From Nemertoderma westbladi (taxonomy: Eukaryota > Animalia > Xenacoelomorpha): a DNA stretch of 64,000 nt. The stretch lies in assembly GCA_032718475.1 (NCBI GenBank), contig JAUCBJ010001168.1, positions 40,511 through 104,510 on the forward strand. The letters run 5' to 3'. The notes beneath the pieces were generated by a model. It was not told the origin of the DNA. It saw only the letters and a program-made list of their open reading frames with translations, and made no database searches. This document shows positions 8,483 to 37,089 of this stretch, one piece after another (positions within the stretch are counted from its first letter, which is position 1; the number at the start of each line of letters is the position of its first letter). The translations under genes and the position numbers were made by a program.

Positions 8483-11400
8483 ACATTTAATGTATTACCT
8501 AGAACAGCTAACAGTTTATGTATTACCTAGAACAGCTAACATTTAATGTATTACCTAGAACAGCTAACATTTAATGTATTACCTAGAACAGCTAACATTT
8601 AATGTATGACCTAGAACTGCTAACAATTATTGTATTACCTAGAACAGCTAACATTTAATGTATTACCTAGAACAGCTAACATTTAATGTATTACCTAGAA
8701 CAGCTAACATTTAATGTATTACCTAGAACAGCTAACATTTAATGTATTACCTAGAACTGCTAACAATTATTGTATTACCTAGAACAGCTAACATTTAATG
8801 TATTACCTAGAACAGCTAACATTTAATGAATTAAATAGAACAGCTAACATTTAATGTATTACCTAGACCAGCTAACATTTAATGTATTACCTAGAACAGC
8901 TAACATTTAATGTATTACCTAGACCAGCTAACATTTAATGTATTACCTAGAACAGCTAACATTTAATGTATTACCTAGACCAGCTAACATTTAATGTATT
9001 ACCTAGAACAGCTAACATTTAATGTATTACCTAGAACAGCTAACATTTAATTTATTACCTAGAACAGCTAACATTTAATGTATTACCTAGAACAGCTAAC
9101 ATTTAATGTATTACCTAGACCAGCTAACATTTAATGTATTACCTAGAACAGCTAACATTTAATGTATTACCTAGACCAGCTAACATTTAATGTATTACCT
9201 AGACCAGCTAACATTTAATGTATTACCTAGACCAGCTAACATTTAATGTATTACCTAGACCAGCTAACATTTAATGTATTACCTAGAACAGCTAACATTT
9301 AATGTATTACCTAGACCAGCTAACATTTAATGTATTACCTAGACCAGCTAACATTTAATGTATTACCTAGACCAGCTAACATTTAATGTATTACCTAGAA
9401 CAGCTAACATTTAATGTATTACCTAGAACAGCTAACATTTAATGTATTACCTAGACCAGCTAACATTTAATGTATTACCTAGAACAGCTAACATTTAATT
9501 TATTACCTAGAACAGCTAACATTTAATGTATTACCTAGAACAGCTACCATTTAATGTATTACCTAGAACAGCTAACATTTAATGTATTACCTAGACCAGC
9601 TAACATTTAATGTATTACCTAGAACAGCTAACATTTAATGTATTACCTAGAACAGCTAACATTTAATTTATTACCTAGAACAGCTAACATTTAATGAATT
9701 ACCTAGAACAGCTAACATTTAATGTATTACCTAGAACAGCTAACATTTCATGTATTACCTAGAACAGCTAACATTTAATGTATTACCTAGACCAGCTAAC
9801 ATTTAATGTATTACCTAGAACAGCTAACATTTAATTTATTACCTAGAACAGCTAACATTTAATGTATTACCTAGAACAGCTAACATTTAATGTATTACCT
9901 AGAACAGCTAACATTTAATGTATTACCTAGAACTGCTAACAATTATTGTATTACCTAGAACAGCTAACATTTAATGTATTACCTAGAACAGCTAACATTT
10001 AATGAATTAAATAGAACAGCTAACATTTAATGTATTACCTAGACCAGCTAACATTTAATGTATTACCTAGAACAGCTAACATTTAATGTATTACCTAGAC
10101 CAGCTAACATTTAATGTATTACCTAGAACAGCTAACATTTAATGTATTACCTAGACCAGCTAACATTTAATGTATTACCTAGAACAGCTAACATTTAATG
10201 TATTACCTAGAACAGCTAACATTTAATTTATTACCTAGAACAGCTAACATTTAATGTATTACCTAGAACAGCTAACATTTAATGTATTACCTAGACCAGC
10301 TAACATTTAATGTATTACCTAGAACAGCTAACATTTAATGTATTACCTAGACCAGCTAACATTTAATGTATTACCTAGACCAGCTAACATTTAATGTATT
10401 ACCTAGACCAGCTAACATTTAATGTATTACCTAGACCAGCTAACATTTAATGTATTACCTAGAACAGCTAACATTTAATGTATTACCTAGACCAGCTAAC
10501 ATTTAATGTATTACCTAGACCAGCTAACATTTAATGTATTACCTAGACCAGCTAACATTTAATGTATTACCTAGAACAGCTAACATTTAATGTATTACCT
10601 AGAACAGCTAACATTTAATGTATTACCTAGACCAGCTAACATTTAATGTATTACCTAGAACAGCTAACATTTAATTTATTACCTAGAACAGCTAACATTT
10701 AATGTATTACCTAGAACAGCTAACATTTAATGTATTACCTAGAACAGCTAACATTTAATGTATTACCTAGACCAGCTAACATTTAATGTATTACCTAGAA
10801 CAGCTAACATTTAATGTATTACCTAGAACAGCTAACATTTAATTTATTACCTAGAACAGCTAACATTTAATGTATTACCTAGAACAGCTAACATTTAATG
10901 TATTACCTAGAACAGCTAACATTTGATGTATTACCTAGAACAGCTAACATTTAATGTATTGCCTAGACCAGCTAACATTTAATGTATTACCAGAACAGCT
11001 AACATTTAATTTATTACCTAGAACAGCTAACATTTAATGTATTACCTAGAACAGCTAACATTTAATATATTACCTAGACCAGCTAACATTTAATGTATTA
11101 CCTAGAACAGCTAACATTTAATGTATTACCTAGACCAGCTAACATTTAATGTATTACCTAGAACAGCTAACATTTAATGTATTACCTAGAACAGCTAACA
11201 TTTAATTTATTACCTAGAACAGCTAACATTTAATGTATTACCTAGAACAGCTAACATTTAATGTATTACATAGAACAGCTAACATTTCATATATTACCTA
11301 GAACAGCTAACATTTAATGTATTACCTAGACCAGCTAACATTTAATGTATTACCTAGAACAGCTAACATTTAATTTATTACCTAGAACAGCTAACATTTA

Positions 11401-14400
11401 ATTTATTACCTAGAACAGCTAACATTTAATGTATTACCTAGAACAGCTAACATTTAATGTATTACCTAGAACAGCTAACATTTAATGTATTACCTAGACC
11501 AGCTAACATTTAATTTATTACCTAGACCAGCTAACATTTAATGTATTACCTAGAACAGCTAACATTTAATGTATTACCTAGAACAGCTAACATTTAATTT
11601 ATTACCTAGAACAGCTAACATTTAATGTAATACCTAGAACAGCTAACATTTAATGTATTACCTAGAACAGCTAACATTTAATTTATTACCTAGAACAGCT
11701 AACATTTAATGTATTACCTAGAACAGCTAACATTTAATGTATTACATAGAACAGCTAACATTTCATATATTACCTAGAACAGCTAACATTTAATGTATTA
11801 CCTAGACCAGCTAACATTTAATGTATTACCTAGAACAGCTAACATTTAATTTATTACCTAGAACAGCTAACATTTAATTTATTACCTAGAACAGCTAACA
11901 TTTAATGTATTACCTAGAACAGCTAACATTTAATGTATTACCTAGAACAGCTAACATTTAATGTATTACCTAGACCAGCTAACATTTAATTTATTACCTA
12001 GCCCAGCTAACATTTAATGTATTACCTAGAACAGCTAACATTTAATGTATTACCTAGAACAGCTAACATTTAATTTATTACCTAGAACAGCTAACATTTA
12101 ATGTATTACCTAGAACAGCTAACATTTAATGTATTACCTAGAACAGCTAACATTTAATGTATTACCTAGAACAGCTAACATTTAATGTATTACCTAGAAC
12201 AGCTAACAGTTAATGTATTACCTAGAACTGCTAACATTTAATGTATTACCTAGAACAGCTAACATTTAATTTATTACCTAGAACAGCTAACATTTCATAT
12301 ATTACCTAGAACAGCTAACATTTAATGTATTACCTAGAACAGCTAACATTTAATGTATTACCTAGAACAGCTAACATTTAATGTATTACCTAGAACTGCT
12401 AACAATTATTGTATTACCTAGAACAGCTAACATTTAATGTATTACCTAGAACAGCTAACATTTAATGAATTAAATAGAACAGCTAACATTTAATGTATTA
12501 CCTAGACCAGCTAACATTTAATGTATTACCTAGAACAGCTAACATTTAATGTATTACCTAGACCAGCTAACATTTAATGTATTACCTAGAACAGCTAACA
12601 TTTAATGTATTACCTAGACCAGCTAACATTTAATGTATTACCTAGAACAGCTAACATTTAATGTATTACCTAGAACAGCTAACATTTAATTTATTACCTA
12701 GAACAGCTAACATTTAATGTATTACCTAGAACAGCTAACATTTAATGTATTACCTAGACCAGCTAACATTTAATGTATTACCTAGAACAGCTAACATTTA
12801 ATGTATTACCTAGACCAGCTAACATTTAATGTATTACCTAGACCAGCTAACATTTAATGTATTACCTAGACCAGCTAACATTTAATGTATTACCTAGACC
12901 AGCTAACATTTAATGTATTACCTAGAACAGCTAACATTTAATGTATTACCTAGACCAGCTAACATTTAATGTATTACCTAGACCAGCTAACATTTAATGT
13001 ATTACCTAGACCAGCTAACATTTAATGTATTACCTAGAACAGCTAACATTTAATGTATTACCTAGAACAGCTAACATTTAATGTATTACCTAGACCAGCT
13101 AACATTTAATGTATTACCTAGAACAGCTAACATTTAATTTATTACCTAGAACAGCTAACATTTAATGTATTACCTAGAACAGCTAACATTTAATGTATTA
13201 CCTAGAACAGCTAACATTTAATGTATTACCTAGACCAGCTAACATTTAATGTATTACCTAGAACAGCTAACATTTAATGTATTACCTAGAACAGCTAACA
13301 TTTAATTTATTACCTAGAACAGCTAACATTTAATGTATTACCTAGAACAGCTAACATTTAATGTATTACCTAGAACAGCTAACATTTAATGTATTACCTA
13401 GAACAGCTAACATTTAATGTATTGCCTAGACCAGCTAACATTTAATGTATTACCTAGAACAGCTAACATTTAATTTATTACCTAGAACAGCTAACATTTA
13501 ATGTATTACCTAGAACAGCTAACATTTAATATATTACCTAGACCAGCTAACATTTAATGTATTACCTAGAACAGCTAACATTTAATGTATTACCTAGACC
13601 AGCTAACATTTAATGTATTACCTAGAACAGCTAACATTTAATGTATTACCTAGAACAGCTAACATTTAATTTATTACCTAGAACAGCTAACATTTAATGT
13701 ATTACCTAGAACAGCTAACATTTAATGTATTACCTAGAACAGCTAACATTTCATATATTTCCTAGAACAGCTAACATTTAATGTATTACCTAGACCAGCT
13801 AACATTTAATGTATTACCTAGAACAGCTAACATTTAATTTATTACCTAGAACAGCTAACATTTAATTTATTACCTAGAACAGCTAACATTTAATGTATTA
13901 CCTAGAACAGCTAACATTTAATGTATTACCTAGAACAGCTAACATTTAATGTATTACCTAGACCAGCTAACATTTAATTTATTACCTAGACCAGCTAACA
14001 TTTAATGTATTACCTAGAACAGCTAACATTTAATGTATTACCTAGAACAGCTAACATTTAATTTATTACCTAGAACAGCTAACATTTAATGTATTACCTA
14101 GAACAGCTAACATTTAATGTATTACCTAGAACAGCTAACATTTAATTTATTACCTAGAACAGCTAACATTTAATGTATTACCTAGAACAGCTAACATTTA
14201 ATGTATTACCTAGAACAGCTAACATTTCATATATTACCTAGAACAGCTAACATTTAATGTATTACCTAGACCAGCTAACATTTAATGTATTACCTAGAAC
14301 AGCTAACATTTAATTTATTACCTAGAACAGCTAACATTTAATGTATTACCTAGAACAGCTAACATTTAATGTATTACCTAGAACAGCTAACATTTAATGT

Positions 14401-16153
14401 ATTACCTAGAACAGCTAACATTTAATGTATTACCTAGACCAGCTAACATTTAATTTATTACCTAGCCCAGCTAACATTTAATGTATTACCTAGAACAGCT
14501 AACATTTAATGTATTACCTAGAACAGCTAACATTTAATTTATTACCTAGAACAGCTAACATTTAATGTATTACCTAGAACAGCTAACATTTAATGTATTA
14601 CCTAGAACAGCTAACATTTAATGTATTACCTAGAACAGCTAACATTTAATGTATTACCTAGAACAGCTAACAGTTAATGTATTACCTAGAACAGCTAACA
14701 TTTAATGTATTACCTAGAACAGCTAACATTTAATTTATTACCTAGAACAGCTAACATTTCATGTATTACCTAGAACAGCTAACATTTAATGTATTACCTA
14801 GACCAGCTAACATTTAATGTATTACCTAGAACAGCTAACATTTAATTTATTACCTAGAACAGCTAACATTTAATGTATTACCTAGAACAGCTAACATTTA
14901 ATGTATTACCTAGAACAGCTAACATTTAATGTATTACCTAGAACAGCTAACATTTAATGTATTACCTAGAACAGCTAACATTTAATGTATTACCTAGAAC
15001 AGCTAACATTTCTTGTATTACCTAGAACAGCTAACATTTAATGTATTACCTAGACCAGCTAACATTTAATGTATTACCTAGAACAGCTAACATTTAATTT
15101 ATTACCTAGAACAGCTAACATTTAATTTATTACCTAGAACAGCTAACATTTAATGTATTACCTAGAACAGCTAACATTTAATGTATTACCTAGAACAGCT
15201 AACATTTAATGTATTACCTAGACCAGCTAACATTTAATTTATTACCTAGACCAGCTAACATTTAATGTATTACCTAGAACAGCTAACATTTAATGTATTA
15301 CCTAGAACAGCTAACATTTAATTTATTACCTAGAACAGCTAACATTTAATGTATTACCTAGAACAGCTAACATTTAATGTATTACCTAGAACAGCTAACA
15401 TTTAATGTATTACCTAGAACAGCTAACATTTAATGTATTACCTAGAACTGCTAACAATTATTGTATTACCTAGAACAGCTAACATTTAATGTATTACCTA
15501 GAACAGCTAACATTTAATGTATTACCTAGAACAGCTAACATTTAATGTATTACCTAGAACAGCTAACATTTAATGTATTACCTAGAACAGCTAACATTTA
15601 ATGTATTACCTAGAACAGCTAACATTTAATGTATTACCTAGAACAGCTAACATTTAATGTATTACCTAGAACAGCTAACATTTAATGTATTACCAAGAAC
15701 TGCTAACATTTAATGTATTACCTAGAACAGCTAACATTTAATGTATTACCTAGAACAGCTAACATTTAACGTATTACCTAGAACAGCTAACATTTAATGT
15801 ATTACCTAGAACAGCTAACATTTAATGTATTACCTAGAACAGCTAACATTTAATGTATTACCTAGAACAGCTAACATTTAATGTATTACCTAGAACAGCT
15901 AACATTTAATGTATTACCTAGAACAGCTAACATTTAATGTATTACCTAGAACAGCTAACATTTAATGTATTACCTAGAACAGCTAACATTTAATGTATTA
16001 CCTAGAACAGCTAACATTTAATGTATTACCTAGAACAGCTAACATTTAATGTATTACCTAGAACAGCTAACATTTAATGTATTACCTAGAACAGCTAACA
16101 TTTAATGTATTACCTAGAACTGCTAACATTTAATGTATTACCTAGACCAGCTA
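8483..16153. repeat. 28-bp satellite array, left block (~270 copies)
   Basis: Unit TATTACCTAGAACAGCTAACATTTAATG with period 28 (8521, 8549, ...). Confidence 0.98.
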
Positions 16154-18467
16154 TATAATATAATGTATATTTTTCCAAAACAAGTTGGGCCGATTCAATA
16201 ACAAGTTGCACACTTATGTGGAATCGTCTCGGCCAGAATAATTACAAACTGGTAAGGCACGCAATACAAATATACAATATATAAATGATATACATAACGT
16301 AACTAATACTTAATACTATACAGTTACAATACACTTACCATGCACATAGCCCCATACAATACACACTCGATACATCCATACAATACACACTGTCCCCCCC
16401 AGAAACCCTCTGCCAATCCCGCTGCACCCCACCCACATCCCACCCTGAATGGGGAGAAACCCGACCCGCTCGCCGCATTAAGTCGCTGGTGTCACAAATG
16501 TGCTTTTAAGCCAGGTATGGCGAAAATAATAAGTTGAGTGTAATAGTCTTCACCTGGGAAAATAACCACGAATCACGATTGAGTGGTGCACAATAACATT
16601 TGTTTAATATTAATGCAATTTTTGAATAATTTTGACAAGATATGCCACACCATCACCCACTTCTTAGTAAAATACGAAAAGCAAGATAAAACATTCTGAC
16701 TGGGACAATGAAAAAAAGAAAATGAAAAAATAAGGAATATTAGTAACCCAGCGAATTAAACCTGTTTGTTGCCTCGATAAAAGTTGCGACAGCCGAAATA
16801 AGGACAAGTGCTTTAGATGCAACGATGCTGGGGGTGCCAGTAGGTCCATGTAAGATAACATGAACCGAAAAACGGAGGTCAAGTTGTAACATGGACTGAT
16901 TAAGTACCAATCGAGGGCCAGTGTACCCCGTGCATTCCATAAAATAGTGGTACACATCTTCGCAGGGATGGCCGCACCCACAAGTTCTATAACTAGTAAC
17001 CTTTGCACGAAATAAGTCGTCTTTTAAAGACGAACAGATGCATCGCATACGAGCAAGCAGGCCGTTAATTTTTGGGCTACCGAGCAAGTAGTATGATGGC
17101 ACTGCTGCGGATGGGTAAAGGTGATTACTTGCTAAATTTTTAAAACTATTAGCAGATGTTGCATTACGTATATTATCCGGTAAGTCGTTCCATATTCGTA
17201 TGGAAGATAGTAAAAATGAATTTTTAAAGTAATTATTCCGAGCAAAAGGTACCCTATAATTATCTCGATTTCTTGTACAATATGGGGAAGACTGGGCCAA
17301 GGTTTCCGGAAGTAATTCGCGCAGATGTGGGGGAGCTGAATTTTTTGTCATTTTATATAGAATAATTAATTTTTGAATTGTCCTTCTATTTTGTAGGGTC
17401 GATATTCCAGATTCAGTATATAAACTGACAGTTGAACAAGAAATGGTTAATCGACATATTATCCTAATGGCTTCCTTATTTATCAGCTCCAGTTTATACT
17501 TTAGTTCGTTAGAACAATTGTCCCACACTGGCCCTGCATACTCCAGACCAGAACGAATAAACGCCACATATATTTTGAGAAGTGCTGCCCTATCTACTTT
17601 ATATTTAACAGCGCGCAACATATTTAGTCTAAGCGAAGCTTTAGTAATAATATCTTTAATATGAGCATCCCATGTTAAATCAGACGATATTGTACACCCA
17701 AGATGTTTATGACTCTTAACTTCTTCAATTATGTCATTATTCAAATAAAGGATACCATGTTCAATATGCCTAACCTGTTTGTGGGAGACCAACATTGCCC
17801 CAGTTTTTGAAGCGTTATATGTGACTAACCATTTTTTGCCCCAATCAAAAACATTAGCCAGATCGGCATTAAGAGCCGCCGTGGCTACACTAGGTTCCCC
17901 CACAATAACGTACAGATATGTATCATCCGCAAATAACTTTACTTTAGAACTAACAATATCGACAATGTCATTAATAAAAACTAAAAATAACAATGGACCT
18001 AGCACAGAACCTTGTGGAACCCCTGCAAGCGTTAATAACCACGTGGACTGACACCCATTAATTAAGACGCACTGCATATTGTTGGATAAATAACTTTGAA
18101 ACCATTTCAACAGAGAGCCTGATATCCCCATCCGCTCTAGTTTATGTAGTAGTGCGGCATGATGAACCTTGTCAAATGCTTTACTGACATCGAGAAATAC
18201 CAATCTTACCTCTTTACCCTTGTCAACGGCACTAACCAACTCGTGGTACAATGTAAGTAATTGGTAAACACATCCGTCCCCGCGGCTGAAACCAGATTGA
18301 AATTTTGTTATATAACCCTTTATATGATTGAATACGTATTTAAATATAATGCGTTCGAAAAGTTTACCAAGGCAGCTCGTTAGGGGCACTGGCCTATAAT
18401 TAAGACATTCAAATCGTAAACCTTTTTTAAAAACCGGGGTAACGAACCTTTTTTTCCAAGATGCGGG
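16154..18467 (-). mobile_element. 5'-truncated CR1/L2-group LINE inserted in the satellite
   Basis: RT ORF plus ~580-bp 3' UTR with a terminal stem-loop. CAGCTA on both flanks (16148-16153, 18468-18473) is a possible TSD. Confidence 0.85.
16740..18389 (-). CDS. CR1-like ORF2 reverse transcriptase (partial) with C-terminal Cys/His motif
   Basis: Motifs QSGF, FLDVSKAFDKV, GVPQGSVLGPLLF, LFADD, KHLG, CGCGHPCEDVYHYFMEC. Confidence 0.9.
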   Translation of the reverse strand: MPLTSCLGKLFERIIFKYVFNHIKGYITKFQSGFSRGDGCVYQLLTLYHELVSAVDKGKEVRLVFLDVSKAFDKVHHAALLHKLERMGISGSLLKWFQSYLSNNMQCVLINGCQSTWLLTLAGVPQGSVLGPLLFLVFINDIVDIVSSKVKLFADDTYLYVIVGEPSVATAALNADLANVFDWGKKWLVTYNASKTGAMLVSHKQVRHIEHGILYLNNDIIEEVKSHKHLGCTISSDLTWDAHIKDIITKASLRLNMLRAVKYKVDRAALLKIYVAFIRSGLEYAGPVWDNCSNELKYKLELINKEAIRIICRLTISCSTVSLYTESGISTLQNRRTIQKLIILYKMTKNSAPPHLRELLPETLAQSSPYCTRNRDNYRVPFARNNYFKNSFLLSSIRIWNDLPDNIRNATSANSFKNLASNHLYPSAAVPSYYLLGSPKINGLLARMRCICSSLKDDLFRAKVTSYRTCGCGHPCEDVYHYFMECTGYTGPRLVLNQSMLQLDLRFSVHVILHGPTGTPSIVASKALVLISAVATFIEATNRFNSLGY

Positions 18468-19860
18468 CAGCTAACATTTAATGTATTACCTAGACCAGCT
18501 AACATTTAATGTATTACCTAGAACAGCTAATATTTAATTTATTACCTAGAACAGCTAACATTTAATGTATTACCTAGACCAGCTAACATTTAATGTATTA
18601 CCTAGAACAGCTAACATTTAATGTATTACCTAGAACAGCTAACAGTTAATGTATTACCTAGAACAGCTAACATTTAATGTATTACCTAGAACAGCTAACA
18701 GTTAATGTATTACCTAGACCAGCTAACATTTAATGTATTACCTAGAACAGCTAACATTTAATGTATTACCTAGAACAGCTAATATTTAATTTATTACCTA
18801 GAACAGCTAACATTTAATGTATTACCTAGACCAGCTAACATTTAATGTATTACCTAGAACAGCTAACATTTAATGTATTACCTAGAACAGCTAACAGTTA
18901 ATGTATTACCTAGAACAGCTAACATTTAATGTATTACCTAGAACAGCTAACAGTTAATGTATTACCTAGACCAGCTAACATTTAATGTATTACCTAGAAC
19001 AGCTAACATTTAATGTATTACCTAGAACAGCTAACATTTAATGTATTACCTAGAACAGCTAACATTTAATGTATTACCTAGAACAGCTAACAGTTAATTT
19101 ATTACCTAGAACAGCACACATTTAACGCATTACCTAGAACAGCTAACATTTAACGTATTACCTAGAACAGCTAACAGTTAATGTATTACCTAGACCAGCT
19201 AACATTTAATGTATTACCTAGAACAGCTAACATTTAACGTATTACCTAGAACAGCTAACAGTTAATGTATTACCTAGACCAGCTAACATTTAATGTATTA
19301 CCTAGAACAGCTAACATTTAATGTATTACCTAGAACAGCTAACATTTAATGTATTACCTAGAACAGCTAACAGTTAATGTATTACCTAGAACAGCTAACA
19401 TTTAATGTATTGCCTAGAACAGCTAACGTTTAATGTATTACCTAGAACAGCTAACATTTAATGTATTACCTAGAACAGCTAACATTTAACGTATTACCTA
19501 GAACAGCTAACATTTAATGTATTACCTAGAACAGCTAACATTTAATGTATTACCTAGAACAGCTAACATTTAATGTATTACCTAGAACAGCTAACATTTA
19601 ATGTATTACCTAGACCAGCTAACATTTAATGTATTACCTAGAACAGCTAACATGTAATGTATTACCTAGAACAGCTAACATTTAATGTATTACCTAGAAC
19701 AGCTAACATTTAATGTATTACCTAGACCAGCTAACGTTTAATGTATTACCTAGAACAGCTAACATTTAATGTATTACCTAGACCAGCTAACGTTTAATGT
19801 ATTACCTAGAACAGCTAACATTTAATGTATTACCTAGAACAGCTAACATTTAATGTATTA
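18468..19860. repeat. 28-bp satellite array, middle block (~50 copies)
   Basis: Same unit as 8483-16153. Confidence 0.97.
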
Positions 19861-21123
19861 TGTAAAAGCTTCTGTGGGATATAACTGGCCCCTTTGCTTC
19901 GCAATCCAGTTTCCCCCCAGGCGCTGGAATACTCTAAAAAGGTTCTCTAACTGTATATATATTCCCCTCGCCCTCAAGGTACCGTTACAGGTGTTTTAAC
20001 GGACATAAAAGGCATTCTGCTATCTACGTGTTTTAGCGGACATGGTAAGACAAAAAACCTGCAATGCGACAAATACCTTTCATAGCTTAGCCGTGATGAT
20101 TCATATTACGACATCTAACAGCTGGTTGCTGACATGGAAACAGCCATTGGACGCATGGTTCTTTGTTTGGCTTGAACCAATCAGAGCGATTTTTCCTGTC
20201 GACGTGTAGCTTTTCGGTCGATCATAAGGAGTGTGTTCAGTCTTACAGTTTTTACTTGATACTTTGTTGTTATTGCTGTCTAGGCCAGGAACAACGGCTC
20301 TAGAATCAATTCGTTTCATACTTTTAGAAGAAACATTAGTAGGCTTAAATTATAGAGCGTATGACTGTTATCGATTCATATCAATGCATAACAATACTTT
20401 GTTCACATCTTGTCATATCATATCTTAACTTACCGTCCTAATGCTGTTTACTGTTGTGTTTTGGTTGAATATTATTTGGAGAACATATATAAAGAACCCA
20501 AATTTCCCAATTTTCTTGATACACTACAGGTTAGAGAGACGGGTTATATATAGCGATTGCGACTTATATTATTGTGGTTTGTAGTGAATTTAATGCTATT
20601 TGATAAGCACTACATTGGTCCTTGCTGTTCTCTCTATATATGATAAAATTCATTGACGGTCGGCAAATTAGTGAGCAGTATTGTGTGTTACCGGTAGTGT
20701 GCATGATTGTGATTGATAACTAAGCATTTCCTAAAGAATGCGCCTCATACGTGAATCTTAAGCCTTACCGACTTACCGTTGTGATTAGTATAAGTCATAT
20801 CTCGGTTTACTTAGATAGAGCGCCACGTCCTAAAGGAACTGTTAATATTTCCCGAAAGTGAATAATATTAGTCAGAAATTAATTATTAACGATCAATCGA
20901 ATAATACAATACAGTAAGCTTCACTGCAATAATAATTTAAGCCCTCAGAATCCAGTCTCCCGGGATTATCCAGCGTGTGAATGGACGCGCACTAGGCTGG
21001 CTTCTGCTAATGTTGTGTTTATTGGTATTAAATATTTGTCATCTTCTAAAGTATATTTATAAACCAAAAGACATATAAATTTTGGCGGGTTAAACTGCTA
21101 AAGGTCTTCCAAAAGCGCGTACA
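19861..21123 (+). repeat. 5' LTR of element A (1263 bp)
   Basis: TGTAAAAGC...GCGCGTACA. About 5 differences from the 3' LTR by eye. Confidence 0.95.
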
Positions 21124-21134
21124 ATAACAGTCAT
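21124..21134 (+). promoter_or_regulatory. Non-tRNA primer-binding site of A (ATAACAGTCAT), complementary to LTR 20361-20371
   Basis: Abuts the LTR-terminal CA, has no TGG start, and is the exact reverse complement of ATGACTGTTAT in the LTR. Confidence 0.7.
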
Positions 21135-21189
21135 TGACTTTATTGCAGTAAGCAATAAAGTTGAAAGTACCGGTCAACCGGTAAACCGG

Positions 21190-21315
21190 AACCGGTACTT
21201 CTGTAGGTCAGTAGGCCCAACTGCCAGAACCGGTACTGCTGTAGGTCCGTAGGTCCAACTGTCAGAACCGGTACTTCTGTAGGTCTGTAGGCCCAACTGT
21301 CCTAACCGGTACTTC
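21190..21315. repeat. 38-bp tandem repeat (x3.3) in the 5' UTR of A
   Basis: AACCGGTACTTCTGTAGGTCNGTAGGCCCAACTG at 21190, 21228, 21266. Confidence 0.85.
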
Positions 21316-21487
21316 CAGTATAAGTACATTAGTATTATTTCGATTGTGATCTATAGTATATTGTAGGCTACCAGAGGAATAGGGATTGATCACCCCTCAT
21401 TCTTTTGTATAGTTTACTTATTTCTGTCAGTTTTATTTCCTAGTAAGTTAATATTGAGCTGAAGACGTGTAAGTCTGCTCAGATTGT

Positions 21488-22066
21488 TCAGATAATTGTA
21501 GGCCAGACTGTTGTCGGATTGTTGTTGAGTTTGGAGAGATTACGGCGTGTGTAGAGTTTGTCCGATAGAGTGCCAGTTAGTAAGTTGGGGCAGCCATCGC
21601 TGTAAGGTCAATCCCCTCTTAAAGAATAAGTCGTACTACCGTGTTAGAACGCATACTAACTAACAATTTTGGAATCTGCACATACTGTAGTTTATTTAGG
21701 CTTGACAGTATTCTGCCAGCGTTTTGGCTTGTGTTTGTTTGTGTGGTCTGTTCAGATACCGTAATAGTTATTACTCAGATATTTTGTAGGCTGGATTGTT
21801 GTCTAGCTATTATTAGGTCTGAAGAGATTGCTGCTTGTGTAGAGTTTGTCTGATAAAGTGCCAGTTAGTAAGTTGGGGCAGTCATAACTGTAAGGTCAAT
21901 CCCCTCTTAAAGAATAAGTCGTACTACCGTGTTAGAACGCATACTAACTAACCGTTTTGGAATCTGCACATACAGTAGTTTATTTAGGCTTGGTGGTAGT
22001 CTGCCAGCATTTGGTTTGTATTTTGTTTGAGTATTCTGTACGGGTAGCGTAATATTTATTATTCAG
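21488..22066. repeat. ~288-bp direct duplication in the 5' UTR of A (homologue at ~37820-38400 in B)
   Basis: TGCCAGTTAGTAAGTTGGGGCAG at 21571 and 21859. Confidence 0.85.
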
Positions 22067-23388
22067 AGTTTATGCGATTATTCGCAACATTCATGTCCCC
22101 AAGTTTATTCCTACAGTAATTGTGTTTGTTACACATACCGTTATAGTTAAATTAACCCCGGTACTACACGGGCTGCTTGGCGTAGGACAAGACTGGTGAC
22201 TTTGTGCTCTGGTCACTCCAGCAGATGCCGTGGTTCTTTTAACTGTTCAAGTATATTTAACTACTGATTATTTGTTGTACCAGTACTTGTACCTAATTTA
22301 GGGTTTAGTGTACAGTGCTTTCCGAAGTAATTAGTGTGTAGGCAGTATATTTGTGTTGTAAAGTGGTTAATAGGCACGCTGGATCTGGTAGTCCGCGGTA
22401 ATTAACTTCTAGGTAGGAACACTCCGTGATACATAACGTAGTACCTATAGCGATACGGTTATAGGTTGTCAGGCGGTGGTATTTTCCTATCTGGACAGTG
22501 CAATATATTTACTACTACTTATTATTTTCAAATACCGTAGTACCCTGTCCGTTGTAATAACCAGAATTCTAACCCTTTGTTAGACTGGTTTGTAGACTTC
22601 CTGTAAAATTACCCTAAAAATTCGTATGTAATATTTTGTTGTGTTTAATTAGAGATTTAATCTCACCCGTATCGTAAGTAATTTGTAGTATTAAGTAACT
22701 TAGGTAAATTAGAATTATCTGTTTTAGTGTCCCATAAATAGCACTTCACTGAGAGCGCACAGCTTCTGTGTAGTGACCCCCCAGAAATAATAACATTTAT
22801 TTCAAATATTGACAAAACCCTTTTAAACGGGTATATATATATTATAAATCAACTCAAACAATTTATAAATAGTAGGCCTGCCATACAACAACTAGGTCTC
22901 AAAATCAGTTGGACTACTGCTTAAATAACGGTAACAAAGTAAGTTAAAGTAACCAAGTAACCCTAAAATATTCAGAAATTCAATTATTCTAAAAATAATT
23001 GACATACCGGTATTTACCATAGGCTTATTATATTTATTTCTATAAATTTGAGCTGAAATCATACTGGTATTCTGTAATTAATTCTAGTTCATAATTATAC
23101 TTATATATACTATAAGTGTAAGCTGCATACCGGTATTCACGATAGGCCTATTATATATTTATATATATTTGTGCTAAAATTATATACCGGTACTCTGTGA
23201 CAAATCTAGTCTGTAATAATACTTATATATATACTATAAGCATACCGGTATTCTAATATATTATATATATATCACGCTACACTGAGTAGCAGTATCGGTA
23301 ATTAATTGTTAGGCTAACAGTGATACTGAATTACTAGACTTACTTTAACTGTATTTATAGCCGTAGGCATTCAACTGTGTAAACAAAC

Positions 23389-26300
23389 ATGTCAGACGCA
23401 ACCCAATCACTGTCAGATAGTCTCTTAGAAAGTGTTAGAATGAGTATTAGACTTAGACAGCGTATTAAAAGGATCTGTGACCAAGATCAAAGTATAGAAC
23501 ATCCCAGATCCAAGTCTAAGTCACCTACTATTGTAAATAAGGCCATCCCTACAGTAGTAGTGTCAGACCCTAGGCTAGTAGAACAACGTAGGTCTATCAT
23601 CGGCACTCGGGCCCAAGTCAAGCGGGATCAAGAAGCAGCTGTCAAACCGCAGCAACATCCTAGCCAAGAACCTAGTTCTCAGCGGCCCGATAGCTCCAGT
23701 AGTTCGGATACTGCTGAGCGGACACCCGAAAGCGGAGCGAAGATGGCGGATACGGTTTATGATGAGCGGCCAACCTATGAAGAATCAACCGACGCCACTT
23801 CTTCTCAAGTGGAAAGCGAAGTGGAAAGCGAAGTGGAAAGCGAATTAACAGCAGCAGAGAAGCCGCAAACTAGAGACGCCATTGACATTTATCTGTCAGA
23901 CTATCAGCGATTCCTAGGAGACGAAGAGTTGAGGAGACGACTGTCTGGACTTCGCCCTAATAGTGAAGGAACCAAGCTTGTGTTGGACGCAATCGATGCG
24001 GAAATGTTAGCTGCAGAACAAGCTAAATTTGATGAAAAACTCCGCCTCGTTAGAGTCCAAGAAGAACAAATAAAGAAAAAACAGATAGAGGACCGAAAGG
24101 CAGCAGCAGTAAAGGCGGCAGAAGCAGAAGCAGCAAAGGCGGCGGCAGAAGTAGAAGCCGAAAGAAAGGCAGCGGAAGTAGAAGCAAAAAGAAAGGCAGC
24201 GGTAGCAGAAGCAGAAAGAAAGGCGGCAGCGGCAATGGCAAAGGCAGTGGCAGAAGCAGAACGGAGAGCGTCTGAGGAGATTGCCCAACTGGAGTTGGAA
24301 AATCTGCAAGAGACGCAGGACGGCATAAATAGACGGTTAACTGCTAATCAAATGCGGATGATGAGTCGATCTACTCCCAAGCGCCAAGGATACACATCAT
24401 CGGAGGAAGGCGAGACCACCGATCCTGAGGGCGGAGGAAATAGATCTCGTCTAAGCAGGCGTAGAAAAACATCTCACCGTCATAAACTGCCTGATTTGCC
24501 CCCAGCTGTCAGAAGACAACTAGCTAGCACAGACTTAGGTAGTACAGAACCCACAGAACAAATTATTCAGGTCACAAGACTCCCTACAATAGTTGATGAG
24601 CCTGAAATAATTAGGCCTGTCGTTCCCAAAGCCACTCCTGTGCTAGAGACCCCTGTACTTCCAGAGCTTAACTCTAAATTCCCTCTACACAGTACTACAC
24701 TGCCTGTACCCGGTAGAACAGTCCATGAGAACCTCCCTGTCCTGGACGCCGAGAGAGAAATCAAGGATTTGTCTCCCGTCGTCCCGCGTCAGCCCGCTAC
24801 AATGTTGGCGACTCCCGCTTCGGCGGTTGAGTGGGTAGAGGAGGGACGGCGGGGGATGAATCTCCTGCTCGGACAGATGCAGGAGACTGTCCACCAATTT
24901 AAGGGAACAGTAAGGGAAGGTAGGGCCGAATTGCAAGAAGTGCAGCAAAGTAACGCGCTAGAACGCGACAAATTAGTCAACATACCAAAGGGTATACCCA
25001 TACCCCCTGTAACATTGTGTCAACCTGTTAGGTCTGAAGTATTACATGCGCAAGGTGTGGAGCCTACACGCATCTATACTGCTAGTGAAGTAGAAACCCC
25101 TATAGCAAACCCTATTAAGGGTGATTATAGACCTGTTGTTAATGATGTTCCCTATAGACCTGATAATGATCCGAGAAATTTATATACCGATAATTCGATA
25201 TTAAATAACACGATGGCCCAAGAAAGCTTTACGCGTCAGATGGCTAGAACAGAAGCCCGCCAAGCGGTCAAAGTGGGAGAGATCGTTAAATTCAATGGAG
25301 ATGAGATGAAATGGCTACCTTTCCATGAATATTACAAAGATAGCATACAAAACTCTGTACTATCTAACGGAGAGAAACTTAGGTTCCTCATCAAGTGCTT
25401 GGAAGGACCTCCCAGGTTAATGGCGTTAAAGTTTATTGGACATCCAGATGGATTAAGACAAGTTTGGGATACATTAAACATCAGGTATGGTAACAAAGAT
25501 AACATAGCTAAGTATTTGTATGCAAAATTAGTAGCCCCCCGACACTTCCTTAGTAGCGGGATTATAGAGTTTTCCGATGAAATTCAGGAAATCTGTAGAC
25601 AATTGGACTGGTTAGGTAAGTCTCATGAATATCAGAGTTCCATGGTTATTGGAGCAGTAGTCTCTACTTTACCCAAGGGTGGAGTATGTACACGTTGGGA
25701 CAAGAAGGTGTTGTACATGAATGAACAACAACGACGAAGCCCTACCATGACTGATCTCATGTCCTTCTTAGATGGTGAAGTTAAACTACAACTCATCAAG
25801 CAGTCCAGAGAGAAAACATCGGAAAATAAGGTAAGTGAGAAACCTGCTTCTAGGAGAAGAGTAACACCGGTGTGTTACACTGACGACGGCGAAAGCCAAG
25901 CTTCTCAAGAAGAGGACAGCGGGAAAGACACAGCAAAATCTTACTATGACAACAAGACCTATAAAGACGTAAGTAAATACAAGTCTCGAATCAGTGACAG
26001 GAGAGAACAGGTAACAACAACTCCTCCTACGTCTCCTAAGAGAATTCACGGAAGAAAGCCCGAAGAAAGAACGAGAGTGCATAACGTTACCCAAGGTAAG
26101 GTGAGTGACATAAAACCTAACTGTGCGCTGTGCGACGGGACCCACCGTTTGAGTGCGTGTGCTGAATTTCTAAAGAAATCCCCTGTAGACAGACGTACAG
26201 TCCTGTGGAATAAGCGGTTATGCTATAATTGCCTCAGATCAGGACACCAACGGCGAACCTGTTACTCCGACGTAAAGTGTGCAAAGTGTGGCGCGAAACA

Positions 26301-27555
26301 TCACATCTTGTTACACAGTGAGTTCGAACGAGACAACCCGAGTCAGGTAAGTGAGCCCGAACTACATGTCCAATTCAGTGATGTAAATGACACTGATCAA
26401 GAGTCTGAGATGGAAGGATTCTATACTGACGAATTCTCCGACGCCAACGAATCCTGTTACCTAATAAATACCTCAGTGTATCGAGCACTTACTTATGAAA
26501 AGGACACCAACAATGAGTTTCCCCCAACTACTTTTGCCAAACAACCATCTTGGAAAGCTCCAACTTCCAACGTAGGAATCAGAGAATTTCCTGTAGTGCA
26601 GGTAAGAGTTCATGGTCCTAACAAAAGTTACATAGTGAACGCCCTCCTTGACTCCGGCAGCACAGGAACATTCATCGATCAAGAACTAGCCGAAGATATT
26701 TTTGCTGGACAACCCAAATTCCGGACTAAATTGAATATGTCAGGAATCATGCAGGTTTGGAAATCTACCCTAACGACAGACTACTATGTAGGTGCGTTGT
26801 CCACCCCCCAGGATAAATTAGGAGCACAAAGTATAAGGTCAGTAAAAATGGTGGCTATAAAGAACTTCGCTACTACCCAAGCAGACCTTTATAATTGGGA
26901 CGAGGATGAGAGCATCCAACATCTTAAGATACCTCGATTCCAGACAGATTATCCTGGAGTGCAAATACTCATCGGCCAAAACGCGCATGAGGCGCTCGAG
27001 ACATTGGAGAAACGGCCTGCTCAACCGCAGCCACTACAAACCTATGCGGTAAGAACTAGAGTAGGTTGGTACTTCACTGGCCCTTCCCGTAGAACTCTCA
27101 AAGAGAGATTACCTCAACAACAGGTATACCAAGTAAAGGAATGGGAAGTGGAGAGCAGTGATGTGGACGATCCAACTGAGGGAACACCATACTCCTCAGA
27201 TAATGACGATATTAACTCCAATGTAGATCAATGGAGACATTGCCTTGGGACGATTAATCCAGCCGACATCGCTTCCAGAGGAGCAACTCCTCAAGAACTG
27301 ATAGATACTCCAGGCTGGTTAGGTGGATCCGACTTCTTAAGTAAAGAAGAAGAAGAATGGCCTCCTCATCTTACCCCGGCGGAGATTAGACAGGCCAAGG
27401 GAGCGGAGAAAATAATACAACAACTCAATCCCCCAGCTGGTCGTTTATGTTTACTGGAAAGAGACCGAAAACTGTCCGGAAACTATGGAAGGCAAGATAC
27501 TCTTCCTACGACCACTTCCCTAATCCGACAAATATCTAGGGACTCCATAACGTAA
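23389..27555 (+). CDS. gag: Gag-protease of A, fused in frame to short RNase H-region and C-terminal remnants
   Basis: Coiled coil; KFNGD...W..F gag core; zinc knuckles CALCDGTHRLSAC, CYNCLRSGHQRRTC, CAKCGAKHHILLH; protease LLDSGS; then NPADIASRG and RLCLLE. Confidence 0.9.
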   Translation: MSDATQSLSDSLLESVRMSIRLRQRIKRICDQDQSIEHPRSKSKSPTIVNKAIPTVVVSDPRLVEQRRSIIGTRAQVKRDQEAAVKPQQHPSQEPSSQRPDSSSSSDTAERTPESGAKMADTVYDERPTYEESTDATSSQVESEVESEVESELTAAEKPQTRDAIDIYLSDYQRFLGDEELRRRLSGLRPNSEGTKLVLDAIDAEMLAAEQAKFDEKLRLVRVQEEQIKKKQIEDRKAAAVKAAEAEAAKAAAEVEAERKAAEVEAKRKAAVAEAERKAAAAMAKAVAEAERRASEEIAQLELENLQETQDGINRRLTANQMRMMSRSTPKRQGYTSSEEGETTDPEGGGNRSRLSRRRKTSHRHKLPDLPPAVRRQLASTDLGSTEPTEQIIQVTRLPTIVDEPEIIRPVVPKATPVLETPVLPELNSKFPLHSTTLPVPGRTVHENLPVLDAEREIKDLSPVVPRQPATMLATPASAVEWVEEGRRGMNLLLGQMQETVHQFKGTVREGRAELQEVQQSNALERDKLVNIPKGIPIPPVTLCQPVRSEVLHAQGVEPTRIYTASEVETPIANPIKGDYRPVVNDVPYRPDNDPRNLYTDNSILNNTMAQESFTRQMARTEARQAVKVGEIVKFNGDEMKWLPFHEYYKDSIQNSVLSNGEKLRFLIKCLEGPPRLMALKFIGHPDGLRQVWDTLNIRYGNKDNIAKYLYAKLVAPRHFLSSGIIEFSDEIQEICRQLDWLGKSHEYQSSMVIGAVVSTLPKGGVCTRWDKKVLYMNEQQRRSPTMTDLMSFLDGEVKLQLIKQSREKTSENKVSEKPASRRRVTPVCYTDDGESQASQEEDSGKDTAKSYYDNKTYKDVSKYKSRISDRREQVTTTPPTSPKRIHGRKPEERTRVHNVTQGKVSDIKPNCALCDGTHRLSACAEFLKKSPVDRRTVLWNKRLCYNCLRSGHQRRTCYSDVKCAKCGAKHHILLHSEFERDNPSQVSEPELHVQFSDVNDTDQESEMEGFYTDEFSDANESCYLINTSVYRALTYEKDTNNEFPPTTFAKQPSWKAPTSNVGIREFPVVQVRVHGPNKSYIVNALLDSGSTGTFIDQELAEDIFAGQPKFRTKLNMSGIMQVWKSTLTTDYYVGALSTPQDKLGAQSIRSVKMVAIKNFATTQADLYNWDEDESIQHLKIPRFQTDYPGVQILIGQNAHEALETLEKRPAQPQPLQTYAVRTRVGWYFTGPSRRTLKERLPQQQVYQVKEWEVESSDVDDPTEGTPYSSDNDDINSNVDQWRHCLGTINPADIASRGATPQELIDTPGWLGGSDFLSKEEEEWPPHLTPAEIRQAKGAEKIIQQLNPPAGRLCLLERDRKLSGNYGRQDTLPTTTSLIRQISRDSIT

Positions 27556-29181: not shown

Positions 29182-30630
29182 ATGACGGAGTTGATAGAAG
29201 ATGATCTTGGTATCAAGGAGCGATATACTCTACCTTTGCAAGCATTTGTGGATAGCTTAATACGCGGTGAAGCCGATCCAACCATTACGGAGGACGATGG
29301 TCGTTATATCGAACCGCCGATGTCCCAAGAGCAACTTGCACGTGAATTGGACTATCGAAAATCCACCGCGCGCTATACGCATCGTAATAGTACGTATATG
29401 GACTTCCTAACTACCGGCCATCCTATCGATTTACATGATACGGACGATGTAGACACCTAAAGGGAAATGATCCTATTTAAATATCATACCCAGCGGAGTC
29501 GGAACGATAAACCGAGAATAGATCACGAAAATTCTATTCGTAACAGACTGGGAAGACGAACCAATATGCCTAGAATCTGAGGAGATTCAGCCTATCGCGC
29601 CCGGAACAGCGACAACGATTACATCCTAGAATGGTATCAAGGTCCACAGTGTCTCACTGCGTACGATTATCGACATGCCAACTATGTTTCTAGGCAACGT
29701 TGTCGGTTATGCGCATCGAGAGACCACGATACGCCCATGGACACCAACGTCCGCTGTTCCTATTTCCAAGAACAACCGACTATGGAAATTTATTGCGCAT
29801 ATTGCAGACTCAACAACCTGCATATCTTTGCGGTTTGCCCTCAATTTATGACTCAATGTCACCATTGTCAACTAAAGGGACATGCTAGTTTCGACTGCCC
29901 TTTTAATCACGATTTGGAAAGCGTAGATGAAATGATCACACTGCGTTACATCAGAGCTTGGGAAGCGAACGCTGATTTACATTGTGATTCGCGCCATCGC
30001 TATTATCCCGGACGCGCTTACGAAGGAGTTTATGCGTTCCATCCTTATCTATTCGCTTCGGTTGAACAGAAATCACGCATATCAAGTTACGAGCTACTGA
30101 AGCGCGTCGGAGAATGTATTTCAACCAAATTCGTACGCAAATTTCTCAGGAGTGTTAATCCTAGCGACCTTCATTCCTATAACTTAATCAATTATATCCG
30201 TCAGGATCCGGACTATGGAGACTTGTTTGTTAACTCACACCCTGAGTTACAGGAAGTATATCGACGGCCTTACGAATACCGAGCCCACGAACGCGAGTTG
30301 GAAAGGACCATTAAACCCCGGAAGTTTCTAACTGCCTATGGTCCACCCACGGCCATCGTTCAGACCACTCGTAAAGGACCCGTAAGAGCGGCTGTCTTGA
30401 AACGAGCTCTCAAAGCCGTTAGACCCCTCTCACCTGACGTTGATGTCAATCAACCCGGTACTTCGACTGACGGATACACCGACCATAATCCTACACCCTC
30501 TGATGCAATCATATTGCACCCTTCACCCAGGAGTTATAGCCCTCCTTGTAAAGTGGCTCGCCCCAAAGAGAAAAGGACTCTGGCTAGCTTTAAAAAACTG
30601 CGTAAACGCCGTCCGCGCGAGAAAGACTAA
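29182..30630 (+). pseudogene. Accessory ORF after pol in A (one ~482-aa frame with two stops; intact part 29737-30630); three CCHC-type knuckles and a basic C-terminus
   Basis: ORFs 29182-29460 and 29737-30630 share a frame. Stops are TAA 29458 (AAA in B) and TGA 29578. Motifs CRLCASRDH..C, CAYCRLNNLHIFAVC, CHHCQLKGHASFDC, KKLRKRRPR. Confidence 0.7.
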
Positions 30631-30700: not shown

Positions 30701-30708
30701 GGGAGCGG
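30701..30708 (+). promoter_or_regulatory. Polypurine tract of A (GGGAGCGG)
   Basis: Directly precedes the 3' LTR TG. B has GGGAGTGG at the same position. Confidence 0.75.
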
Positions 30709-31972
30709 TGTAAAAGCTTCTGTGGGATATAACTGGCCCCTTTGCTTTGCAATCCAGTTTCCCCCCAGGCGCTGGAATACTCTAAAAAGGTTCTCTAACT
30801 GTATATATATTCCCCTCGACCTCAAGGTACCGTTACAGGTGTTTTAACGGACATAAAAGGCATTCTGCTATCTACGTGTTTTAGCGGACATGGTAAGACA
30901 AAAAACCTGCAATGCGACAAATACCTTTCATAGCTTAGCCGTGATGATTCATATTACGACATCTAACAGCTGGTTGCTGACATGGAAACAGCCATTGGAC
31001 GCATGGTTCTTTGTTTGGCTTGAACCAATCAGAGCGATTTTTCCTGTCGACGTGTAGCTTTTCGGTCGATCATAAGGAGTGTGTTCAGTCTTACAGTTTT
31101 TACTTGATACTTTGTTGTTATTGCTGTCTAGGCCAGGAACAACGGCTCTAGAATCAATTCGTTTCATACTTTTAGAAGAAACATTAGTAGGCTTAAATTA
31201 TAGAGCGTATGACTGTTATCGATTCATATCAATGCATAACAATACTTTGTTCACATCTTGTCATATCATATCTTAACTTACCGTCCTAATGCTGTTTACT
31301 GTTGTGTTTTGGTTGAATATTATTTGGAGAACATATATAAAGAACCCAAATTTCCCAATTTTCTTGATACACTACAGGTTAGAGAGACGGGTTATATATA
31401 GCGATTGCGACTTATATTATTGTGGTTTGTAGTGAATTTAATGCTATTTGATAAGCACTACATTGGTCCGTTGCTGTTCTCTCTATATATGATAAAATTC
31501 ATTGATGGTCGGCAAATTAGTGAGCAGTATTGTGTGTTACCGGTAGTGTGCATGATTGTGATTGATAACTAAGCATTTCCTAAAGAATGCGCCTCATACG
31601 TGAATCTTAAGCCTTACCGACTTACCGTTGTGATTAGTATAAGTCATATCTCGGTTTACTTAGATAGAGCGCCACGTCCTAAAGGAACTGTTAATATTTC
31701 CCGAAAGTGAATAATATTAGTCAGAAATTAATTATTAACGATCAATCGAATAATACAATACAGTAAGCTTCACTGCAATAATAATTTAAGCCCTCAGAAT
31801 CCAGTCTCCCGGGATTATCCAGCGGGTGAATGGACGCGCACTAGGCTGGCTTCTGCTAATGTTGTGTTTATTGGTATTAAATATTTGTCATCTTCTAAAG
31901 TATATTTATAAACCAAAAGACATATAAATTTTGGCGGGTTAAACTGCTAAAGGTCTTCCAAAAGCGCGTACA
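30709..31972 (+). repeat. 3' LTR of element A (1264 bp)
   Basis: Near-identical copy of 19861-21123. Confidence 0.95.
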
Positions 31973-32037
31973 TATTACCTAGACTAGCTAACGTTTAATG
32001 TATTACCTAGAACAGCTAACATTTAATGTATTACCTA
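31973..32037. repeat. 28-bp satellite remnant between elements A and D
   Basis: About 2.3 units of TATTACCTAGA...ATTTAATG. Confidence 0.9.
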
Positions 32038-35000: not shown

Positions 35001-37089
35001 GTGTCCCACAGCCGTCAGCGGATAATGCGAGGGCCGAAATAGGTAAACCGCAACGACCGGCGACGGAAAGTAACAGGGGGATCGCGAGTATCCCCAGCGG
35101 CGTGCGACCGAGCAGAGAGAGACAGGTTGACGTCGCGAGAGGGCGGACGAAGCGTCGAGCCCGATCAGAGGAGGGAAGAAGAACAGTGGGGTTTAACCGG
35201 GAGGTCGACGAGAGATCTCGCGAGCGGGAATATTCCACTGATAGGAGAAGAAAGGAAGACAGTAGTAGAAGTATCGCCGCGAACGATAGAAGAGCGAGGA
35301 CGGATAGCGAGCCGTCGATAGTCGAGATGAGAACGGAGAGTCAGTGGGGTCGGACTCCGGGAGATTGCCGTCGCCCCGGAGGGACGCGACCCGACGAGGC
35401 GCACTACGCGCCGAGAGAGGGGTACGCGATGTACCGGTACGAAGATGAGAACAGTAGAGAGGGGGGTCGGAGAGAAACTTTCCGACGGGATATACCTACC
35501 GAACGAGAATACGGTAGCCGCGGGGAGGATTATTCGAGAAGAATAAACTTCGATCCCGAACAACACATGCAGACTGTAGGACATACTGTAGGCCTTACTG
35601 CACATACCGTAGGCCATACTGAGAGAGGCAATATAGGCGATAGGATAGCGCGGACGACGGAATTAAACCCCGAAGTCGCGGAATACATACCGGCGGGTAG
35701 GCCAGAAGCTGATAGGCCTATACCGGTACCAGCACAGCAGTATGACTACAGCATGCAAGGACATAACATATACCCAGGGGAGGGGGGAATTATTGCGGAT
35801 AGGTGCATGGGCCCCAACATATTAACATCAACCCCATTCCCAAACATACCGGTGGGGGGGGGGACAGGGTGACATTCCCCCATCACAATATCAACAATAT
35901 ACCCCGATGGTAGCAAGAACAATGAGACCCTTGGACGAAAACAGATCGTGTGACACAGATATATGGAGGGGGCCGCTACCCCCAATGACATACCCAAGCC
36001 AGAGAAAGCCAAGAGATAGGACAGACGGGACGCACCAGACAGGGGAAACTATACAGCACCCGTCGAATCCATTGGAAGCGCAGGCGATAGGGATGGCCAC
36101 GTTGATCGATGCTTTGAAAACGAGGATCGAGTTACCACCCGTGGAACCATTCAAGTTCGATGGGAGTAGGCCGGAAGAATATTTACAATTTCGGCGAATG
36201 TATAGTAACGAAATACTAACAAAAAACTTGACGCAGGCGGAGTGCCTAAAGTATCTACAAGTGTACACGGGAGGCCCAGCATACGATATCGTGAGGCAAT
36301 ACCAAGGAATAGAGGGCGGCTTCACGACAGCATGGCGGGCACTGGATAGGGAATACGGGCACCCGGCCAAGATCATCAGGCAGACGCTGAGAGGCATAAC
36401 ATCGGGTGGCCTACAGGATAACCCCGTTAGCATCAAGACGTTTGCTAACAAAGTCGAAAAGGCGCTAATCGTGTTGAAGACGCTAGACGCGCCGTACGAG
36501 CTCAATGCGTCCAACAACATCACCACGATAGCGCAGGCACTACCGAACTGGCTGCGCAACAAGTGGAGGAAGATCGCCTTTCTCCACTCGAGATAAGAAG
36601 GGTGCGGAACCAGGTTTAGAAGAAATGTCAAACTTCTTAAATTACGAGGCTGAACTAATAACAGACCCAGTCTATAGTGAAGATAGCCTGGGAAAGGGAC
36701 CAAAGACAGATCACTACAGGCCGAAACCAGAGCATAATACATCAAATGCATTGCCGAGGCTCAGGCAATCATTGCCATACGCAGCGACGCAGGGGACTGC
36801 AAGTCCACAGGCAAACGAAGATAAGACAACATCGTGGAACGGACAGGGGAACAATAACAACATGAATAAACATAACCCCAGTACGTCCAGTAGGCCAAAT
36901 CCAGTCAATAAGAATAGTAGGGACTTTGGTACGAATATAACTGCGATACGCAATGCATTGTATAAAGAGGGCTACGACCCAAAGAGCAAATGCCAGTTAC
37001 ACGCAAATGCGCTTCATAAAACCATGAACTGCAGGTACTGGCAGGCGCTACCGAGGCAAGACCAGATAGATTACGCGTCGAGCAAGTAG
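32038..37089 (+). mobile_element. BEL/Pao LTR retrotransposon D (5' part only; probable LTR 32038-32579)
   Basis: Starts with TGT at the satellite break. Gag motifs LPPVEPFKFDG, FLNYEAELITDPVYS and CQLH...H..MNC. Truncated at the junction with B's LTR. The LTR end is inferred because there is no second LTR. Confidence 0.8.
32660..37089 (+). pseudogene. gag: Frameshifted gag of element D (ORFs 32660-35872, 35907-36596, 36625-37089)
   Basis: Successive ORFs broken at a G-run (~35855) and at ~36595. Contains E/R coiled coil, N-rich tract and a BEL gag core. Confidence 0.8.

Follow-up and report, generated by a model that had tools for sequence, protein, structure and literature searches.

The window, by which we mean the whole 64,000-nucleotide stretch of DNA analysed here, carries two long retroelements on its forward strand, A and B, and the Pfam domains of their gag and pol genes bear out their original assignment to BEL/Pao. 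Their LTRs and coding regions are:

19861-21123, +: 5' LTR of A, TG..CA, 1263 bp (self-comparison of the window and inspection of the ends)
23383-27555, +: gag-protease ORF of A, with DUF1759 (Pfam)
30701-30708, +: short purine-rich tract before the 3' LTR of A, the PPT by position (inspection)
30709-31972, +: 3' LTR of A, 99.6% identical to the 5' LTR (5 differences)
37085-37402, +: stump of the B 5' LTR, its last 318 bp, joined to the gag-like element C
39681-47626, +: gag (39681-42638) and pol (42560-47626) of B (Pfam)
50912-52109, +: 3' LTR of B, TG..CA, 1198 bp (inspection of the ends)

Element A, 12.1 kb long, was inserted into a 28-bp satellite and is bordered on each side by its 5-bp target duplication. 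Comparison with B shows that two internal deletions, with breaks near 27209-27226 and 27411-27418, have removed its RT, most of its RNase H and its integrase. Its LTRs are nevertheless 99.6% identical, so A probably moved recently, with enzymes from another copy. After its pol and before its 3' LTR, A has an ORF of 349 aa (29581-30630) with weak zinc-knuckle similarity (E 0.18) and no confident family; by Pfam it is not env-like, and the matching region of B is not open.

Element B, at more than 15 kb, has lost its left end, TG..CA being seen at its 3' LTR. It encodes DUF1759, protease, RT, PF05380, integrase H2C2 and DUF5641 as well as an RNase H region; its gag and pol occupy two frames, those of A one. 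The BEL/Pao markers PF03564, PF05380 and PF18701 are present, with gag followed by the order PR-RT-RH-IN. The LTRs of B and A are 72% identical downstream of the 11-mer described below and 57% identical upstream of it.

The satellite (more than 320 copies, at 8483-19860 and 31973-32037) also received a third BEL/Pao-like element, C (32038-37084), whose LTR starts with TG in the satellite; C has gag-like ORFs with DUF1759 and runs straight into the B 5' LTR stump. A fourth BEL/Pao element, D (55699-64000, minus strand; its 5' LTR falls beyond the window), has an RT-RNase H 46% identical to that of B and is the nearest neighbour of B in the tree described below. A non-LTR RT ORF lies at 5698-7515 on the minus strand, and the B 3' LTR abuts a second copy of this element (52110-52320, 96.7% identity over 211 bp). 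Near the left edge are a 43-bp tandem array (843-1632), adjoining a minus-strand fragment (198-471) that resembles the gag of C, and an animal-type G2F-domain exon of the nidogen/hemicentin type (1843-2637). ARAGORN found no tRNA gene in the whole window, and hence no element-encoded tRNA primer; Rfam, run on 19800-23400, gave four weak matches far below gathering scores and no ribozyme.

Pairing between the LTR and the PBS

Around the junction of LTR and leader, the following features bear on priming:

20359-20360, +: pyrimidine-purine step at which the RNA of A is predicted to start, 2 nt ahead of the stretch that pairs
20361-20371, +: candidate self-primer of A, exact complement of its PBS (second copy in the 3' LTR, 31209-31219)
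21081-21102, +: hairpin of 8 bp predicted in U5; B retains it, with G-C in place of a G:U pair
21124-21134, +: PBS of A, directly after the terminal CA, without TGG
21138-21160, +: 9-bp hairpin core just after the PBS of A, pair probability 0.999
37398-37552, +: 69-bp tandem duplication with three copies of the B PBS (37403-37413, 37472-37482, 37541-37551)
37557-37579, +: conserved hairpin core of B, after its third PBS copy
51362-51372, +: candidate self-primer of B, complement of its PBS, aligning with the A 11-mer

The original prediction, that the 11-nt PBS of A is the exact complement of an 11-mer in its own LTR, holds to the nucleotide: within the window the reverse complement of this PBS occurs only at 20361-20371 and 31209-31219. 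For B the predicted exact complementarity stands (the complement of 37403-37413 occurs in the window only at 51362-51372), while the PBS, taken to be single, is in fact present three times. Because the B 5' LTR is cut at 37085 and lacks the 11-mer, the pairing of B is read from its 3' LTR. In both elements it ends at exactly 11 nt. The three differences in 11 that had been reported between the two PBSs fall at positions 6, 8 and 9, where the LTR copies do carry the complementary letters; the helix energies are -12.4 and -12.0 kcal/mol for the elements' own pairs, against -5.5 and -2.4 for the crossed A/B pairs. A TGG of the tRNA type, already said to be lacking at the PBS start, is absent within 60 nt of the LTR end in both A and B.

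By chance an 11-nt match would be expected 0.0009 times per LTR for A and 0.0007 for B, and 11 nt was reached by 1 of 200 shuffled LTRs for A and by none of 200 for B. The sole 11-mer complementary to the LTR in the 2260-nt leader of A is the one at the LTR end; the 2279-nt leader of B holds the three PBS copies and one other. In retroelements each cycle copies the PBS anew from its primer, so that three separate compensating events need not be assumed for the mirrored changes: a linked change of PBS and LTR through recopying is itself what self-priming predicts. Contigs of run X1 (probably DNA, with the 11-mer not covered and no GT..AG joint in the LTR) carry two further PBS variants, with 5 changes and 1 change relative to A, indicating that the PBS drifts; there are thus at least four variants around A and B.

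In B, each 69-bp unit combines the PBS and a variant hairpin with 5 nt from the very end of the LTR, and it also carries the LTR/PBS junction as an inverted copy of 8 nt; the duplication may be the product of a faulty priming or transfer step. The hairpin said to follow the PBS in both elements is found as described in A, where it extends to 12-13 bp; its 3' arm includes AATAAA, and it also holds a YAG resembling a splice acceptor. In B the exact hairpin follows the third PBS copy only. In element C, whose LTR end is uncertain, the best candidate PBS, near 32514, pairs exactly over only 6 nt; it is an imperfect match to a word present twice in the LTR of C.

Folding gives the primer:PBS helix of A a probability of 0.86-0.90 for an RNA starting at 20359-20361, of 0.13-0.89 for a start at 20351, and near 0 from 20341 or further upstream. 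In a two-strand fold B behaves like A, except that the primer pairs with the third PBS copy, not the first. When the interior 750 nt were shuffled the pairing was equally probable (0.89-0.92 in all 14 shuffles); nothing thus sets the native fold apart, and folding shows feasibility only. Two flanking duplexes of the Tf1 type were matched by 5-38 of 100 shuffles in five tests, and a consensus fold of the A and B leaders, which with two sequences has little power, has changes on both sides in 11 of 148 pairs. The most conserved leader block (20796-20857), nearly identical in A and B and with the highest contig depth in run X1, possibly serves packaging or dimerisation.

Neither A nor B has a TATA box at -30; B has a TATA-like word 11 nt before the 11-mer, and if this were used the start would fall just past the primer. 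No clear poly(A) signal is common to A and B, which share only variant hexamers. An acceptor-like pyrimidine tract ending in TTTTAG lies about 32 nt before the 11-mer in both (A 20309-20327, B 51310-51330), with no common donor seen upstream of it.

Candidate primers in related families

A protein search found BEL/Pao relatives, 38-44% identical, in aquatic animals: PF05380 is present in all 120 homologues listed, and those named come from cnidarians, echinoderms, molluscs, fish, a crustacean and a tunicate. An alignment of 38 of these 120 with the query led to 79 metagenome loci, the best of 544 confirmed stretches, which form 47 families at 85% identity; viral_contigs yielded no relatives.

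In 11 loci the LTR end is fixed by a direct repeat. In eight of them, which represent 7 families, a pairing of 11-15 nt appears only once a GT..AG intron in the LTR is taken out (0 of 60 shuffles each); one other pairs contiguously over 10 nt (3 of 200 shuffles), and two gave nothing. The splice test required only GT and AG at the intron ends, and beyond this demand the donors of the spliced relatives are mostly GTAAGT-like and their acceptors pyrimidine-rich. Further families came from scans in which the LTR end was not fixed, where single calls are weaker (0-7 of 40 shuffles), and three family calls, two of them at offset 5, were made by eye. Altogether 25 of the 47 families are readable, with predicted primers that are spliced in 21 and contiguous in 4, and a TGG site of the tRNA type was seen in none of the 25. 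The 22 families with no verdict comprise 9 set aside for a missing 5' region, 11 that gave no reading (several having no LTR or PBS in the contig), one decayed (L011) and one with the acceptor side only (L053). In one locus counted as giving no verdict (L079:464-490), inspection by eye found a 13-nt stretch, about 9 nt past an uncertain LTR end, that is complementary to the 3' LTR. The PBSs of six relatives (L003, L024, L056, L058, L067 and L077) are nearly palindromic.

The match between PBS and LTR across related families, put forward with the original prediction as a check on it, holds, with 23 different primer sequences in the 25 families. Together with A and B there are 27 rows and 25 distinct inferred primers of 10-15 nt, 11 being the commonest length. 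In all 27 rows the paired stretch starts 0-5 nt from the LTR end, and all 27 primers, those of A and B included, end in A plus a pyrimidine. Counting back from the paired stretch, 22 of 27 rows have the base A at -2 and 16 of 27 have YR at -3/-2, a pattern that elements A and B fit; since this upstream motif was found post hoc and the families are related, its p-values are nominal. The A-plus-pyrimidine end is read as a fixed cut site and the upstream motif as a putative initiator. A TATA in the -30 region was found in only one of the 27 rows, L068 (31 nt before the primer), which is near B in the tree, and AATAAA or ATTAAA lies downstream of the primer in 6 of 8 relatives inspected.

The RT-RNase H tree (49 rows) was made by a quick method and is unrooted, so that it cannot tell gain from loss; its five contiguous rows need five changes on five separate branches, as the starred branches force. 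Repeated loss of the intron is the simpler reading than repeated gain. The contiguous primer of L067 consists of the same 12 letters as the spliced primer of L024. Element B, on a long branch and about 43% identical to its nearest relatives, falls in a well-supported set of 11 with four spliced families, and A and B are likely intron-less members of a wider system whose primers are predicted to be spliced. A spliced primer sought for A or B themselves reached 10 nt (3 of 60 shuffles), no better than the contiguous one. An intron in their long leader, suggested by donor-like words near LTR position 669, was set aside: daughter LTRs would be expected to lose it if it were spliced from genomic RNA.

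A possible priming route and its rivals

A and B are thus BEL/Pao elements in which the PBS is the exact complement of 11 nt of the LTR, and they are probably primed by the 5' end of their own RNA and not by a tRNA. This tRNA-independent reading, proposed originally from the two elements, is supported by self-pairing in all 25 readable related families, though it is still inferred from sequence. The steps might be as follows: the RNA would start about 2 nt before the 11-mer, and its 5' end would pair with the PBS over 752 nt, the U5 and post-PBS hairpins flanking the duplex. The RNA would then be cut after the A plus pyrimidine that ends the duplex, probably by RNase H of the element on the model of Tf1, leaving a free 3' OH that would be extended into U5; the 27 ends in 27 rows fit a specific cut and do not name the enzyme. 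Plus-strand synthesis would recopy the PBS from the primer, so that a change in the LTR 11-mer would pass to the PBS. In most relatives the same primer would be joined by splicing a short first exon over the LTR intron, which the lineages of A and B have likely lost. As A has no RT, its enzymes would be supplied in trans.

Another possibility is that the 3' end of the RNA acts as primer, the 3' OH being given by the 11-mer copy in the 3' LTR, either at a cleavage/poly(A) site or on a second RNA in the particle. This copy would be transcribed whatever the start site, and the lack in A and B of both a clear downstream poly(A) signal and a TATA at -30 would suit such a role. However, no poly(A) hexamer common to A and B was found upstream of the 11-mer, and in 6 of the 8 relatives inspected for it the poly(A) signal is downstream of the primer. 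If the 3' copy were spliced, moreover, daughter LTRs would be expected to lose the intron, which 21 families have kept: the primer intron would persist only if a spliced 5' copy primes and an unspliced 3' copy templates the daughter LTRs, which favours the 5' over the 3' end (for A and B by homology) and makes 3'-end priming unlikely.

Less probable again is priming by a small RNA of the host, be it a tRNA, a fragment of one or some other kind, with the match in the LTR as a secondary feature. The nearly palindromic PBSs of L003, L024, L056, L058, L067 and L077 resemble the T-loop/B-box word of tRNAs, though the 5' part of the primer comes from exon 1, and several relatives' primers end in a word like the T-loop. 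The ICTV account gives tRNA-Arg or tRNA-Gly for the family (PMC8742986), and half-tRNA primers are described for copia lineages (PMC6317226). Against this stand the absence of TGG, the 25 primer sequences in 27 rows and the multiple PBS variants around A and B: self-pairing in 25 of 25 readable families with 23 primer sequences is not explained by any fixed host RNA, and if a host RNA were the primer, nothing would make the LTR, or a splice junction, follow the PBS in its changes.

We regard it as somewhat more doubtful still that the duplex is structural or regulatory (in cyclisation, dimerisation, strand transfer or a switch between translation and packaging), with priming by another route. 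Long-range 5' pairings are common in retroelement RNA, and the post-PBS hairpin hides poly(A)-like and splice-acceptor-like words. But structural helices usually allow G:U pairs and mismatches, whereas the pairing here is perfect over 10-15 nt, starts in each of the 27 rows at 0-5 nt from the end of the LTR, and is accompanied by no other primer site. Chance, or one local copying accident, could be entertained in that the window holds only two families and the three changes could be one event, but with fewer than 0.001 matches expected per element, the same site in A and B and the same relation in 25 other families, it is very improbable and already largely refuted.

Priming by the RNA's own 5' end can be placed in a broader model, to which we incline by a little: in a broad BEL/Pao branch of aquatic animals tRNA priming would have given way to a self-primer built by the host spliceosome from a first exon of 4-9 nt and the start of exon 2, and cut after a fixed A plus pyrimidine. 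The intron would survive as only the cap-proximal copy is spliced; occasional splicing of the 3' copy would remove it and leave ready-made primers, as in A and B with their 750-nt leader, and the drifting, private lock and key of primer and PBS would be kept even by an element that has no RT.

Comparison with known systems

In superfamily terms A and B resemble the Belpaoviridae (BEL/Pao, Semotivirus) in their TG..CA LTRs, in the 5-bp target duplication of A, and in a gag with DUF1759 followed by PR-RT-RH-IN with PF05380 and DUF5641. They differ in size, A (12.1 kb) and B (more than 15 kb) exceeding the 4.2-10 kb given by ICTV, and in having an 11-nt self-complementary site in place of the 18-nt PBS for tRNA-Arg or tRNA-Gly, with tRNA priming, that ICTV describes (PMC8742986). 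No PBS of the tRNA type was found, and the assignment of A and B to BEL/Pao rests on their proteins.

BEL/Pao replication is poorly understood and assumed to be tRNA-primed (PMC8742986). Our literature search, outside which lay Repbase, GyDB and most subscription papers, found no report of self-priming or of a splice-built primer in BEL/Pao, though it may have been remarked on before; within the portions covered by term searches, PMC3118150, PMC554778, PMC6238403 and PMC8556966 make no mention of PBS, tRNA or priming for the group. If BEL/Pao self-priming is real, tRNA-free priming would either have arisen independently once more or be an old trait retained in this superfamily; it would bear on whether tRNA priming originated late (discussed in PMC3601003). 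It would also explain how PBS-based annotation can miss these elements and might free them from inhibition by tRNA fragments. A splice-built primer, if real, would link the onset of reverse transcription to the splicing machinery of the host and offer a testable reason for the persistence of the LTR intron.

Self-priming has been predicted by the same test for plant elements, the TAR lineage (Houba, Osr-1) of Ty1/copia and the Tcn1 chromoviruses: in the accessible text of PMC6317226 the test is an LTR complement of at least 10 bp starting 0-5 bp after the 5' LTR. Those are copia and gypsy elements, and that text describes no intron-split primer for them.

Tf1 and Tf2 of S. pombe, Tj1 of S. japonicus and the Tf1/sushi group of Ty3/gypsy chromoviruses likewise have a PBS complementary to 11 nt of their own LTR and no tRNA site; the Tf1 PBS may, as originally suggested, also open with the same five letters as the PBS here. 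A and B do not belong to the Tf1/sushi lineage, their domains being those of BEL/Pao with no chromodomain match in Pfam. In Tf1, according to PMC7175516 and PMC4600332, the PBS pairs with the 11 bases that begin the transcript, which RNase H then cleaves between bases 11 and 12, and two further flanking duplexes complete a "pretzel" (PMC10085805). A and B differ from Tf1 in superfamily, in a primer about 750 nt from the PBS, and in a start predicted 2 nt before the paired stretch; the "pretzel" duplexes are unsupported in them, local hairpins flanking the PBS instead, and most of their relatives, unlike Tf1, have a primer split by an intron. Most likely, then, A and B represent Tf1-like self-priming in a superfamily that has been described as tRNA-primed.
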